IMG/VR virus record: IMGVR_UViG_2861079508_000001
Source: a virus
Lineage: Duplodnaviria > Heunggongvirae > Uroviricota > Caudoviricetes
DNA length: 64,000 bases
Strand: one strand, 5' to 3'
Position numbers and translations under genes: made by a program. This document shows positions 2,892-11,764 of this stretch, piece by piece. How positions within the stretch are numbered: the first letter of the stretch is position 1; each line of letters opens with the position of its first letter. The notes under the pieces were generated by a model. It saw only the letters and a list, made by a program, of their open reading frames with translations. It searched no databases and was not told the DNA's origin.

Positions 2892-3578
2892 TCAACAAAA
2901 ACTGGCCACCGAGTTAGAGTTTTTCCAGTATCGATTTTCCGATTCATTTGGGGGTAATCCACCGTTATATTCGTGCGGTCTTAGTGCGCTGTAATATCCA
3001 ACGATATAGTCCGTTATGGCGTGAGCTGCCTCGCTGAAGCTTACGTAACCCACCACCGGCATCCATTCGTTCTTCAGACTCCTGAAGAAGCGTTCCATTG
3101 GGCTGTTATCCCAGCAGTTTCCGCGCCGGCTCATACTCTGCCTGATCTGGTATCGCCACAATAACTGCCGGAACTGCCTGCTCGTATAATGACTGCCCTG
3201 ATCGCTGTGGAACATCACTCCGCCGGGCTTACCACGGGTTTCCCATGCCATTTCCAGCGATTTCATGGTGAGCCTGCTGTCCGGCGAGAACGACATGGCC
3301 CAGCCCACTGGTTTTCTTGCGAACAGGTCGAGAACAACGGCGAGGTACGCCCAGCGCTTACCCGTCCAGATATAGGTCACATCACCGCACCACACCTGAT
3401 TTGGCTCGGTCACGGCGAACTGCCGTTCAAGGTAGTTAGGGATAGCAACATGTTCATGACCACCACGTTTATACCGGTGAGTCGGCTGCTGACAGCTGAC
3501 CAGCCCCAGCTCCTTGGCAATTTGACGTCCTTTCAGGCCTGGTGACCCACCTAATAACTCTGAGACTGCCTTCAGCAA
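2892..3578 (-). mobile_element. IS3-family transposase OrfB fragment (DDE/rve core); remnant, no orfA upstream
   Basis: 228-aa ORF with [19 protein letters not shown] and [17 protein letters not shown] typical of IS3-family integrase core; only 15 bp from the hsdR stop. Confidence 0.7.
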
Positions 3579-3592
3579 ACCATCACTCCTTT

Positions 3593-9132: not shown

Positions 9133-11592
9133 TTACCCCTGAACCTTTTTTACTTCCGCACCAAGAATCTGCGCAATCAAACCTTCGGCTTTTTGTTCTA
9201 GGTTGATGATGTCGGTTGCGACCTCTTCTAAACTACGCAGCGGTTTATGACGGTAGAAATACTTATTGAAGCTGATTTCATAGCCAATTTTTACCGTATC
9301 TAGGTTTATCCATGCTTCATCGACATGAGGCTTCACTTCATCTAGGAAGTACTGGTAAATGCTTTGCTTTAATGGAACAGATTCTGTATCTCGCAGGTCT
9401 GAATTGGTCTCGTAAGTGATATACTCGCCTTTTTTACCGCCTTCTGCTGAAGGAACGGGGTAATAACCAAAATCTGGCAAGTCAGCGACTTCACACTCAT
9501 AGCGCTCCAGCAGGTCGTTTAATTTATCACCCGTTAATTTAACTACCTTTTTAACCACTTTCTTGGCGGTTTCGTCATACCAGCTCACCGCGTGAAGAAT
9601 GGCATTTTTCTCAGGTGCTGAAAGCTTAATAGCATGGGCTTTTAGCGATTTATCAACTTGGGTTTTAAAGCTATTGAAGTCATCAAATTCAATGCTACCG
9701 ATGTCAGCCATCAGCGTTTGTGCAGTTTCAAGCAATGCTTTTAGCGCCAGCCAGTGTTTCACATCAAGCAGTTTGGCCTTAGCCTTAGCATTGAGACTGA
9801 TGTCGTTATCTTCACACCAAGAAAGAATGTCTTTCTCGATGGATTTTAAGAAGCTCTTTTTCTGATCTGACCCGTAGCCAGTTTTTTCGTAAACACGTTC
9901 GCCGTGCTCTGCGTACACGTACTCCATCACTTCACTAAGTTGCTTATCAAAACGCAGTGGGGCTATGGCATCTTGAGTAAACTTGGCTTTGCGGCGATCT
10001 GGGCGCTCGATAGTGACTTTGTAGTAGCCAAAATCGTCATTGCTGAATACCTTACTGGCGATGCCAACAGGATCATTGTTTGCATCCAGTGCTCTTTCAA
10101 CATCCTTACACGCGAGGTAAGTATCGGTAATTTCCGTGATGTGCTCAGGCGCAAATTCGCAGTTTTTGTTACCTAAGTTCTTGCGCAACTTACGGTAGAG
10201 CAAGCTGGCATCAATTAATTGCACCTTACCTTTACGCGCCTCAGGTTTATTGTTGTTCAACACCCAAATGTAAGTGGTAATGCCAGTGTTATAGAACAGG
10301 TTATTAGGTAACTGAACGATGGCATCTAGCATGTCGTTTTCAATGATGAAGCGACGAATATTACTTTCGCCACCGCCCGCATCACCGGTAAAGAGCGATG
10401 AGCCGTTATGAACAGAGGCAATCCGGCTGCCTAATGGACTTACGCTCGGATCTTTCATCTTGTTGACCATCTCCATTAAGAAAAGCAGCTGGCCATCACT
10501 CGAACGTGGCGTGGCATCCACCACTTCGAGATTTCCCCAATAGTCTTTCAGGCTAACCTTAAAACGCGGGTCAATCACATCGCTGCCGTCTTTAATGTAC
10601 TTCTGTTCAGACGCCCAACTCTTACCGTATGGCGGGTTAGACAACATAAAGTCAAAGCGAGAAGCCGCAAACTCGTCGGTAGACAAGGTTGAGCCTACCT
10701 TGATGTTCTCAGGGTTGTTACCTTTGATCATCATGTCCGATTTACAAATCGCGTAGGTCTCGTCATTGATCTCTTTGCCGTAAAGGTAAATATCTCGGCT
10801 GTCGTTCGGGTATTTCTCTTCAATGAAGTTTTGAGATTCAGTGAGCATACCACCGCTACCACACGCAGGGTCGTAAACGGTCATGGTCAATGGTAGCTGC
10901 TCTTTCACTGGGTCAAAAACCAAGTGTGTCATCAGCTCAATCACTTCCCTAGGTGTAAAGTGCTCACCGGCTTCTTCGTTATTCTCCTCGTTGAACTTAC
11001 GGATCAACTCTTCGAACACGTACCCCATACCCAGGTTAGTAAGGGCTGGCATCTTGTTGCCATCTGGGTCTTCGATCGTTTCATGAGTTAAGTTGATGTA
11101 AGGGGAAACAAACTTTTCGACGACATCAAGAAGGACTTGCTTTGAGGCCATGTGACGAATTTGCGACTTGAGGTTAAAGCATTCAATGATTTCTTTAACA
11201 TTATCGCTAAAGCCAAGCAGGTACTCTTCAAAGTTGGCGAGTAATATCTGTTGGTTATTCGTTGCGGTGTTGAACAGGGATTTCAGGGTCCATTTAGATG
11301 TATTGTAAAAAACATAACCACTAGCCGCCTTCAATGGTTCATCATCAAGCTCCGTGGCTTGCATCTCTTCTTTTTGGAACTTGACCTCTTCAAGCACGGC
11401 TTCTTTGGTGGGTTCAAGTAACGTATCTAAACGTCGTAATACCACCATAGGTAAAATCACATCGCGGTACTTACCGCGAACGTACACATCACGTAAACAG
11501 TCGTCGGCAATGTTCCATATAAATGAGATGAGCTTGTTATGTACACTATGATCCATTTTCTTTTCCTGTTCAGTGTTGGTTGCACCCCACAA
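9133..11592 (-). CDS. hsdM: type I R-M N6-adenine DNA methyltransferase (HsdM) with long C-terminal extension; start probably MDHSV (about 11556)
   Basis: AdoMet motif DPACGSGGML and catalytic NPPYG; N-terminal IWNIADDCLR HsdM-N signature; about 800 aa versus roughly 520 typical. Confidence 0.85.
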   Translation of the reverse strand: MWGATNTEQEKKMDHSVHNKLISFIWNIADDCLRDVYVRGKYRDVILPMVVLRRLDTLLEPTKEAVLEEVKFQKEEMQATELDDEPLKAASGYVFYNTSKWTLKSLFNTATNNQQILLANFEEYLLGFSDNVKEIIECFNLKSQIRHMASKQVLLDVVEKFVSPYINLTHETIEDPDGNKMPALTNLGMGYVFEELIRKFNEENNEEAGEHFTPREVIELMTHLVFDPVKEQLPLTMTVYDPACGSGGMLTESQNFIEEKYPNDSRDIYLYGKEINDETYAICKSDMMIKGNNPENIKVGSTLSTDEFAASRFDFMLSNPPYGKSWASEQKYIKDGSDVIDPRFKVSLKDYWGNLEVVDATPRSSDGQLLFLMEMVNKMKDPSVSPLGSRIASVHNGSSLFTGDAGGGESNIRRFIIENDMLDAIVQLPNNLFYNTGITTYIWVLNNNKPEARKGKVQLIDASLLYRKLRKNLGNKNCEFAPEHITEITDTYLACKDVERALDANNDPVGIASKVFSNDDFGYYKVTIERPDRRKAKFTQDAIAPLRFDKQLSEVMEYVYAEHGERVYEKTGYGSDQKKSFLKSIEKDILSWCEDNDISLNAKAKAKLLDVKHWLALKALLETAQTLMADIGSIEFDDFNSFKTQVDKSLKAHAIKLSAPEKNAILHAVSWYDETAKKVVKKVVKLTGDKLNDLLERYECEVADLPDFGYYPVPSAEGGKKGEYITYETNSDLRDTESVPLKQSIYQYFLDEVKPHVDEAWINLDTVKIGYEISFNKYFYRHKPLRSLEEVATDIINLEQKAEGLIAQILGAEVKKVQG

Positions 11593-11764
11593 AGTTGCTG
11601 CAACGGCTTCACTATAAATTTAAAATTCTGTTCTTTCTGTAACGCCTAAATGGCCGCTACATCGTTCGATTAACTTGTTCTACCCGGCGCTAGATTTAAG
11701 TTTATGACACCATAAAGTGAATCGCCACAGGTTTAACAGACACCTCAGAGTCATTTAAGATGAC

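Follow-up and report, generated by a model that had tools for sequence, protein, structure and literature searches.

How did a Type I restriction-modification (R-M) operon come to lie within the backbone of a phage-plasmid? This question is raised by the 64,000-nucleotide stretch of viral DNA recorded in IMG/VR as IMGVR_UViG_2861079508_000001 (the window; position 1 is its first letter), in which a first-pass annotation had recognized hsdM, hsdS, and hsdR between 2892 and 11760 and proposed a horizontally acquired defense island inside a phage-plasmid, bounded by the remnant of an IS3-family transposase. Our analysis supports that proposal: backbone genes are truncated at both edges of the region, insertion sequence (IS) ends are present, and the intervening DNA is 93 to 96% identical to the cargo of an integrative and conjugative element (ICE) and ~99% identical to chromosomal islands. 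We consider it likely that positions 2886 to 11777 are a horizontally acquired defense cassette, derived from ICE cargo and trimmed by ISs, in an SSU5-like phage-plasmid.

Borders of the insert

Comparison with the SSU5-type backbone sets the limits of the foreign DNA at 2886 to 11777 (8.9 kb), because backbone identity ends at 2885 and the identity of an IS remnant runs to 11777; in blastn, homology to SSU5 stops at 2885 and resumes at 11773. An IS3-family remnant, identified here as IS911, does bound the island as first annotated; the limits themselves move outward from 2892 and 11760, and a second IS3-family remnant (11718-11777) had escaped notice. The borders, from left to right, are composed of the following features:

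2781-2885 (start approximate), minus strand: 3' remnant (~105 bp) of an SSU5_064 homologue, its 5' part lost with the insertion
2886-3512, minus strand: IS911 remnant, the 3' 627 bp, with the OrfB catalytic core and the terminal inverted repeat TGAAGTGTCAACAAAAACTGGCCACC
2892-3578, minus strand: chimeric open reading frame (ORF) of 228 residues, a TTG start and 22 ICE-gene codons fused in frame to 206 IS911 orfB codons
3500-3512, no strand assigned: internal junction, the 13-bp GAGCTGGGGCTGG (minus strand) present in both IS911 and the ICE gene
3513-3592, minus strand: hsdR-downstream spacer and 5' end of an ICE gene for a 361-residue protein, 96% identical to L011 14197-14297
11557-11717, minus strand: ICE-derived region upstream of hsdM, 93% identical to L010 6133-6293
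11718-11777, plus strand: ISEhe3-like left-end remnant of 60 bp, terminal repeat and 5' leader
11765-11956, minus strand: truncated SPFH/band-7 lipoprotein gene, the first 61 of 276 codons plus 2 junction codons
11773-11777, no strand assigned: right junction, AGGTG, 5 bp common to the IS remnant and the SPFH gene
11960-12160, minus strand: 66-residue membrane protein (phrog_1130), an intact backbone gene

The left border is a genuine IS end. The outer end of IS911 lies at 2886, where the terminal repeat is intact and begins TGAAGTG, and the remnant is 98.3% identical in DNA sequence to the IS911 of phage Sf6. The ORF at 2892-3578 matches Pfam rve (4.7e-32) and positions 172 to 368 of the 369 in NCBIfam transpos_IS3, and thus a DDE/rve core is paired with a terminal inverted repeat starting 5'-TG, as in the IS3 family. 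The element is incomplete, with no left end, orfA, frameshift region, or target duplication, and with its inner breakpoint inside orfB. The first-pass description of this ORF as a truncated IS3-family OrfB without orfA was accurate as to the family (rve at 4.7e-32, 98% identity to IS911) and missed that the ORF is a chimera, an assignment we make because 22 codons of the 361-residue-protein gene run in frame into IS911 orfB. Its translation begins as the N terminus of the ICE protein and continues as OrfB, with an LGL tripeptide at the junction common to both; ICE homology extends to 3500 and IS911 homology to 3512, and the TTG start and first 22 codons of the ICE gene, the product of which weakly matches HATPase_c, correspond to 3513-3578. 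The chimeric ORF does lie close to the hsdR stop, as first described, at a distance of 14 nucleotides. On the backbone side, the blastn alignment to SSU5 ends at window position 2885, equivalent to SSU5 position 4488, within SSU5_064 (4384-4794).

The right border is of a different kind. The ISEhe3-like remnant has 100% identity to the 60 bp lying in front of “ISEhe3 orfA” in Shigella phage SfIV, stops 3 nucleotides short of the orfA start codon, and abuts the remnant of a brxR gene at 11717/11718. Backbone identity restarts at 11773, at 98 to 99% to pMT1, pHCM2, and related plasmids, as does SSU5 homology; since IS identity continues up to 11777, AGGTG is common to both partners. As far as sequence can tell, this 5-bp overlap points to an illegitimate joining. 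In a separate observation on this element, the window holds a single copy of the ISEhe3-like terminal repeat (11718-11741), and all other copies examined (L001 and L003-L007, plasmid and chromosomal) have a 24-bp tandem duplication of it (TGAATCGCCACAGGTTTAATAGAC followed by TGAATCGCCACAGGTTTAACAGAC).

Immediately beyond, the 63-codon ORF at 11765-11956 shares 58 of 61 residues with SSU5_062 (E = 2e-41), and RefSeq annotates its counterpart in relatives as an SPFH domain protein. The small lipoprotein and membrane-protein pair placed at this edge (11765-12160) in the first-pass annotation is therefore a truncated SPFH gene beside an intact backbone gene for the 66-residue membrane protein. In SSU5, the two border points are 1.47 kb apart, an interval of three genes made up of part of SSU5_064, a NinX/DUF2591-like gene, and most of the SPFH/band-7 gene SSU5_062. 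Judged from this arrangement, the insertion cost the backbone ~1.5 kb, a deletion that had not been recognized before.

Relationship to SXT/R391 cargo and chromosomal islands

The core of the insert is closely related to cargo of SXT/R391-type elements. Window positions 11717-9051 are 93% and 7890-3500 are 96% identical to SXT/R391-type hotspot-5 loci, from which the HsdS recognition domains alone differ. At one edge, this homology meets the ISEhe3-like end (11717/11718); at the other, it extends 13 bp into the IS911 remnant (3500-3512). Alteromonas CP013930 and five metagenome contigs have a common gene order, with rumB-rumA followed at some distance by BrxR (WYL), hsdM (809 residues), hsdS, a DUF4268 gene (387 residues), hsdR (1005 residues), and the gene for the 361-residue protein, downstream of which lie several small genes, a cyclic-oligonucleotide-based antiphage signaling system (CBASS) pair, and then traI. 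The CP013930-type locus is hotspot 5 of SXT/R391 ICEs, which adjoins traI and always holds anti-phage genes and a WYL regulator (LeGault et al., bioRxiv 10.1101/2020.12.16.423150; Science 2021). Upstream of hsdM in the window, 11557-11669 is an intergenic spacer and 11670-11717 retains the final 48 bp of the WYL/BrxR regulator gene including the stop codon, the translation of which (...LYGV.NL..APGRTS*) matches the C terminus of the ICE BrxR. The cassette is itself no ICE: the window flanks are SSU5-type backbone, with no int, tra, or rum genes, and we class it as ICE-derived cargo because only the hotspot-5 cargo is in common.

At least 80% of the cassette, at ~99% identity, is present in 55 of 5426 complete Escherichia coli genomes, in plasmids as well as in chromosomes. 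On chromosomes, the copies are located in IS-rich islands beside Ag43 and GTPase genes and have both inner junctions in common with the window and neither of the plasmid junctions. Chromosome LR-31 (L007) exemplifies this, with brxR/ISEhe3-like and IS911/361-residue-gene junctions as in the window. An older state is found in chromosome ET474 (L006), in which the gene for the 361-residue protein continues for a further 55 bp and is followed by an intact IS911 left end (TGAAGTGGCACACTGAATTTGGCCACC). Short-homology deletion is the best reading for the loss of the inner IS911 half, because the junction falls in the 13-bp GAGCTGGGGCTGG present in both IS911 and the ICE gene. In LR-31- and ET474-type chromosomes, the ISEhe3-like remnant is split at 46 bp by a further IS911. 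Its counterpart in the window is continuous over 60 bp, and thus the window copy is not descended from this interrupted chromosomal arrangement.

We counted full-coverage matches to junction queries in PLSDB, in which ~1000 plasmids match the flanks. The right junction is found in 27 plasmids and the left in 33, with hosts comprising E. coli, Escherichia fergusonii, Shigella flexneri, and one Enterobacter. In pRHB17-C18_2, pLAO4, and pSLy3, three junction 40-mers (the two plasmid junctions and the one between IS911 and the ICE gene) match the window exactly, and the fourth, brxR/ISEhe3-like, is one base off the window in all three. At least 143 PLSDB relatives are free of the island, with flanks joined across an intact SPFH locus; this locus is likewise uninterrupted in SSU5, Cyrano, pMT1, and pHCM2, and in Cyrano (96% backbone identity) it holds an intact stomatin-like gene. 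The first-pass annotation would have been contradicted by related phage-plasmids all carrying the same R-M genes at the same site; 27 to 33 of ~1000 do. Common junctions among the carriers and an intact SPFH locus in relatives argue for a single acquisition in one sublineage.

The same distribution bears on whether the R-M genes are ancestral in this phage-plasmid group and were lost from other lineages. All 27 to 33 carriers have one site and one set of junctions, and their flanks form a distinct sublineage, 98 to 100% identical to one another and 75 to 88% identical to island-free relatives, as would also be seen if the genes had been retained there. An ancestral position would, however, leave unaccounted for the truncated backbone genes at both edges, the IS ends at both borders, the remnants of two neighboring ICE genes inside the insert, and the intact SPFH gene in island-free relatives across five genera (Yersinia, Salmonella, Enterobacter, Citrobacter, and Escherichia), which makes ancestry with loss extremely improbable.

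Carriage of defense genes has been described for such elements: R-M, PrrC, PD-T4-3, or PD-T7-5 systems occur in one clade of E. coli/Shigella SSU5-like phage-plasmids, according to the passages available to us of bioRxiv 10.1101/2025.09.12.675607, and the window probably belongs to that clade as it is described there. That study reports DefenseFinder presence or absence; the passages seen do not describe the origin of a cassette, its borders, or a nested gene, and hsd and IS911 do not appear in the main text as far as seen.

One relative documents IS911 at work. Plasmid p1585m1_B (NZ_CP086388.1, L021) has both island junctions and a complete, 1252-bp IS911 at the same left junction, the left end of which abuts hsdM at approximately window position 10468; a deletion has removed hsdR, the nuclease gene, hsdS, and two thirds of hsdM. 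This shows IS911 activity on the plasmid, and some junctions may have originated there. None of the 33 left-junction carriers has IS911 alone at that junction, the nearest being this deletion derivative.

These data allow one to ask whether the island moved as a composite transposon under the IS911 transposase. The genuine IS911 terminal repeat joined to backbone at the left, the complete IS911 of p1585m1_B at that junction, and the chromosomal copies, flanked on both sides by IS911 in the same orientation, would fit. Such a transposon has two copies of the same IS and a target duplication, but the window contains no second IS911, its right border, a 5-bp overlap between the interiors of the ISEhe3-like IS and the SPFH gene, is not an IS end, no target duplication is present, and 1.5 kb of backbone is deleted. 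Moreover, no carrier has a cassette that ends in an IS911 left end with a 3- to 4-bp duplication of the left target, and because the ISEhe3-like remnant extends 14 bp past the point of chromosomal interruption, the chromosomal IS911 was never part of the window copy. Transposition of this kind is therefore quite unlikely.

Trimming by ISs followed by entry through recombination accommodates these findings better, and we propose the following course. The four-gene operon would descend from SXT/R391 hotspot-5 cargo, where it lay between the WYL/BrxR gene and further defense genes. An ISEhe3-like element would have inserted into the 3' end of brxR and IS911 into the gene after hsdR, with the 13-bp short-homology deletion later removing the inner half of IS911, and the trimmed cassette would circulate in IS-rich E. 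coli chromosomal islands. It would then have entered one SSU5-like lineage, once, with the left join at the genuine IS911 end and the right join made illegitimately over 5 bp, deleting ~1.5 kb that comprised part of the SSU5_064-like gene, the NinX/DUF2591-like gene, and most of the SPFH gene. The most economical route, which we favor because the left is a true IS end, the right is illegitimate, and no target duplication is found, would be homologous exchange of the plasmid with a chromosome via IS911 and then aberrant resolution. Entry was followed by target-recognition domain (TRD) swaps, replacement of the nested gene by a GmrSD pair, insertion of a group II intron and of IS110, and an IS911-driven deletion of the cassette in one plasmid.

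Several points weigh against this reconstruction. No target-site duplication survives at the insert borders. The G+C content of the insert is 0.436 versus 0.465 elsewhere, and 18% of equal-size backbone windows are as low, so that the composition check proposed in the first-pass annotation discriminates weakly; we rejected G+C content as a marker of foreign origin on this ground. Neither the direction of transfer (into the phage-plasmid from a chromosome or the opposite) nor the recombination route is more than inferred, and, in view of the complete IS911 of p1585m1_B, recombination may instead have carried the internal IS911 deletion to chromosomes from a plasmid on which it first occurred. 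Separately, a search for direct or inverted repeats flanking the island returned short matches at chance level only.

Among the copies of the cassette, change is concentrated in particular places. HsdM, HsdR, and the nuclease are 96.5 to 99.8% identical. In HsdS, TRD1 is 28 to 35% identical, TRD2 is either 19 to 24% or 99 to 100% identical, and the conserved regions are 87 to 100% identical, a pattern that by sequence is classical recognition-domain shuffling and would amount to at least four specificities. In pLAO4, the slot between hsdS and hsdR holds a GmrSD enzyme (GmrSD_N and GmrSD_C, 649 residues) and a GmrSD_N-DUF7834 protein, with no DUF4268 gene; in pEc1675, a frameshift lies close to the 3' end of the nuclease gene. 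The IS911 remnant carries a group II intron in pSLy3 and others, and other sister plasmids carry an IS110. In a related side observation, the group II intron (ltrA) is found inside the IS911 beside the cassette in pSLy3 (L005 2563-4071) and in the ET474 and LR-31 chromosomes (~16900-18400), and IS911 seems to be a recurrent homing site for it.

The Type I genes and the nested nuclease

Within the insert lie four intact ORFs on the minus strand, in the order hsdM-hsdS-nuclease-hsdR. The three genes first annotated are thus all present on that strand, together with a fourth intact gene at 6625-7788 that had been overlooked:

3593-6610, minus strand: hsdR, 1005 residues, intact (Pfam HSDR_N, ResIII, SWI2_SNF2, T1R_D3-like)
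6625-7788, minus strand: nested nuclease gene, 387 residues, between hsdS and hsdR (PADLOC candidate PDC-S11)
7798-9126, minus strand: hsdS, 442 residues, two TRDs (PADLOC Specificity_I 1.8e-128, residues 2-438)
9133-11556, minus strand: hsdM, 807 residues (Pfam N6_Mtase 2e-60, HsdM_N 7.8e-23; PADLOC MTase_I PDLC03029 3.5e-268)

HsdR matches SWI2_SNF2, ResIII, and HSDR_N with E-values of 8e-27 to 1e-13 and retains D155...E169-x-K171, GSGKS319, and DEAH431, so that an N-terminal PD-(D/E)xK nuclease is joined to a superfamily 2 ATP-dependent motor, as in Type I enzymes; it is 97.7% identical to the ICE copy and 99.8% identical to the chromosomal copies. HsdS (Pfam Methylase_S, E = 4.6e-10) has the two variable TRDs separated by conserved regions that are typical of Type I specificity subunits. 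HsdM carries the catalytic motif NPPY at residue 307 of a γ-class N6-adenine methyltransferase, and its start is most likely the ATG at 11556 (807 residues, as in CP057685.1) over the TTG at 11592. It scores 108 bits against TIGR00497, the cut-off of which is 243; this and a 300-residue C-terminal extension place it in a divergent subfamily. Judged by sequence, the Type I genes have every feature expected of their families, and HsdM2-HsdS would methylate a bipartite target set by the two HsdS recognition domains, and with HsdR would translocate on and cut unmethylated incoming DNA.

The extension of HsdM merits separate mention. It spans ~300 residues (500-807, window 9133-10059) with no counterpart in solved HsdM structures, which align only over approximately residues 145 to 500; a domain search of the extension returned only DUF6650, below threshold (E = 0.012). 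In a related Type I system that nests a homologous nuclease, HsdM has an ordinary length of 567 residues.

Two findings count against a working cassette: the BrxR regulator itself is lost, and a simple scan between the SPFH remnant and hsdM gave no minus-strand sigma-70-like promoter, with counts at the level of shuffled sequence. Both would be expected of a decaying, nonfunctional passenger, as would the decay seen in relatives (the pEc1675 nuclease frameshift and the p1585m1_B deletion from hsdR to hsdS). The four reading frames are nevertheless full length with catalytic motifs intact, they are 97.5 to 99.8% identical to ICE or chromosomal copies, and the exchange of TRDs with conserved regions kept is the pattern expected under selection for specificity. 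A mere passenger is thus improbable, and read-through from the backbone operon is a possible source of expression for the defense cassette, because its genes lie on the same strand as the upstream gene for the 66-residue protein.

The nested protein matches PADLOC PDC-S11 (PDLC04913) at 1.8e-182 over residues 1 to 383, that is, over its full length, and PF14088 DUF4268 at 1.1e-39 over residues 238 to 372. Its architecture consists of an N-terminal NucS/RecB-like PD-(D/E)xK nuclease, a middle domain, and the C-terminal DUF4268. The active-site motif comprises E26, D63, E77-x-K79, and Q90-x3-Y94; among 60 cluster representatives, 30 to 59% identical to the query, E26, D63, K79, Q90, and Y94 are invariant and E77 is >90% conserved. 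By sequence pattern, E...D...ExK...QxxxY is the signature of RecB/NucS-type PD-(D/E)xK nucleases, and the family profile aligns with NucS (Protein Data Bank, PDB, 2vld) on this motif (E = 0.0033), NucS being the top match by profile and by fold. Subthreshold Pfam matches are to PDDEXK_4, NucS_C (E = 0.029), and MmcB-like. We rejected membership in NucS/EndoMS itself, as the NCBIfam NucS model gives 23.9 bits against a cut-off of 216. The family is large, with 5541 cluster representatives at 50% identity (E ≤ 0.001) across phyla, and proteins 97 to 99% identical to the one nested here occur in E. coli, Vibrio, Proteus, Providencia, Morganella, Alteromonas, Marinomonas, Shewanella, and others.

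The genomic contexts of four divergent homologues (59-64% identical) are informative. The first occupies the same hsdS-hsdR slot in an unrelated Type I system, in which a 62% identical protein has a 567-residue HsdM and a 1084-residue HsdR as neighbors. The second directly follows a Type I operon in which Shedu and DUF3644 genes are nested, and the other two are in different defense-like neighborhoods with no R-M genes. As an observation in its own right, a Logan contig from SRR29936176 (L019) contains a different Type I operon, in which a Shedu-type SduA_C gene separates hsdM from hsdS and a DUF3644 gene separates hsdS from hsdR, with a DUF4268 nuclease gene just downstream; this is a further example of Type I operons as docks for defense genes.

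A characterized DUF4268 protein, MdgA, is a single-gene, modification-dependent antiphage nuclease (PMC12366544, Cell Host Microbe 2025). It protects as one cloned gene, cuts DNA in vitro unaided, and degrades glucosyl-hydroxymethylcytosine T4 DNA far better than unmodified DNA, and E77A abolishes its activity (PMC12366544). More generally, DUF4268 is mostly fused to GmrS/GmrD domains (Machnicka et al. 2015, PMC4619093). From the contexts of the homologues and this literature, we take the nested gene to be autonomous, probably modification-dependent, and often though not always located in Type I operons. By analogy, it may be read as an independent second defense layer, most probably a Type IV-like nuclease directed at modified phage DNA that the Type I enzyme fails to restrict. 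Two points temper this assignment: the structure model has an N-terminal half of medium confidence (mean predicted local distance difference test score, pLDDT, 70.6), and homology to MdgA is suggestive, by architecture and the numbering of E77.

A different role is known for a gene in this position. In the prr locus of E. coli CT196, prrC lies between hsdS and hsdR of the EcoprrI Type Ic R-M system, and EcoprrI keeps the PrrC anticodon nuclease latent until inhibition of restriction by a phage sets it free. The nested nuclease might, by the same token, be a nonautonomous component or guard of its Type I enzyme, and its slot, the gaps of just 9 and 14 nucleotides to its neighbors, and the 62% identical homologue in the same slot of an unrelated Type I system are in keeping with this. 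However, two of the four divergent homologues stand in neighborhoods with no R-M genes, MdgA works as a single gene and cuts DNA alone in vitro (PMC12366544), and the slot also takes GmrSD, an autonomous Type IV enzyme. The nested protein had no PrrC match in PADLOC, and we found no sign of coupling to the Type I enzyme. We therefore regard a guard role as unlikely and retain an autonomous second layer as the better description.

A broader proposition is that the hsdS-hsdR slot is a dedicated exchange site for Type IV-like nucleases in a two-tier operon, with the nuclease perhaps coupled to the Type I enzyme in the manner of PrrC, and that the whole spreads by infection. This is rather doubtful; if true, one operon would restrict both unmodified and hypermodified DNA, and the phage-plasmid would spread a two-tier module by infection.

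The carrier and comparison with known systems

The carrier is an SSU5-like phage-plasmid of E. coli. Window 1-15300 is 99.8% identical to plasmid pRHB17-C18_2 (CP057685.1), and 30000-54000, which encodes tail, helicase, ligase, primase, and ParA proteins, shows ~96% identity to Escherichia phages Cyrano and CMS-2020a and 81% to Salmonella phage SSU5. At the left end of the window lies the following feature:

1-1095: Rep3-type initiator gene (RepA), with iterons directly downstream

A pattern search finds 10 exact copies of the 15-bp iteron TATGCTRYSAGCGGT at 1096-1627, where none is expected by chance, and this array is presumably the origin of plasmid-mode replication; Tandem Repeats Finder detected no iterons in this region because the repeats are spaced. 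RepA with its iterons, ParA, the tail, helicase, ligase, and primase genes, and the 96% identity to Cyrano and CMS-2020a together support the phage-plasmid identity of the host replicon.

Three further features of the backbone were noted. The RecA-like recombinase at 12251-13324 has 357 residues and no intein, and the same gene in phage Cyrano (L016 4978-7317) and several sister plasmids (L003, from 11341) encodes ~780 residues annotated as a LAGLIDADG homing endonuclease or an intein-containing RecA; we conclude from this difference that the intein is polymorphic. The stretch 26500-28700 has low G+C content (0.36-0.40) and reversed GC skew, adjoins a tyrosine recombinase gene (25177-26280), and may be a further cargo spot; its plus-strand ORFs 26531-27067 and 27715-28623 have no Pfam or PADLOC match, and the second is phrog_35492, of unknown function. 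Finally, 48000-49000 combines a G+C spike of 0.595 with strong negative AT skew inside the 1385-residue tail-fiber gene at 45302-49459 (Gp34_trimer and Peptidase_S74 chaperone domains), and long ORFs on both strands there are expected of a compositionally biased repeat region.

R-M systems in SSU5-group phage-plasmids, hotspot-5 defense cargo, genes nested in Type I operons, and DUF4268 nucleases were already known. The present analysis adds a precise anatomy for the insert, a connection of ICE cargo with chromosomal islands and a phage-plasmid, and a slot that alternates between two kinds of putative Type IV nuclease. The locus records, at base-pair resolution, the passage of one defense cassette among an SXT/R391-type element, IS-rich chromosomal islands, and a phage-plasmid, with ISs as the cutting tools. 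Phage-plasmids can move the cassette by infection and by vertical inheritance, and it may thereby alter which phages and plasmids their hosts accept. The carriers also form a natural test bed: because near-identical sister plasmids differ in TRDs, in the nested gene (DUF4268 nuclease, GmrSD pair, or frameshifted), and in whether they have the cassette at all, one could measure directly what each layer contributes. Current views are not overturned; this is a clear and fairly ordinary case of defense genes moving between mobile elements.

Among known systems, SXT/R391 hotspot-5 cargo is the closest, with the same four genes in the same order, and fragments of brxR and of the downstream gene are still attached in the window. 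The hosts of the nested protein, from Vibrio to Shewanella, match the range typical of SXT/R391 elements. Unlike in that cargo, the regulator and the neighboring defense genes (CBASS and others) are gone, and the carrier is a phage-plasmid or an E. coli chromosomal island. Hotspot-5 genes of ICEVchInd6, which may or may not correspond to the present cassette, were reported to be always inside an SXT ICE (LeGault et al., bioRxiv 10.1101/2020.12.16.423150). At the level of the nested protein, NucS/EndoMS (PDB 2vld) has only the nuclease domain in common with it, the middle domain and DUF4268 being unrelated. MdgA resembles it in being one gene with an N-terminal nuclease and DUF4268, and the ExK glutamate is E77 in both. 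In contrast to GmrSD Type IV enzymes, the nested protein has neither GmrSD_N (DUF262) nor GmrSD_C (DUF1524/HNH) and its nuclease is of the PD-(D/E)xK type; the two are alike in position, in that the sister island of pLAO4 holds a GmrSD pair in the slot occupied here by the DUF4268 nuclease. The prr locus offers the same arrangement, an unrelated defense gene nested in the hsdS-hsdR slot of a Type I operon, but prrC encodes an ABC-ATPase/anticodon nuclease, whereas the protein nested here is of the PD-(D/E)xK DNase type with a DUF4268 domain.

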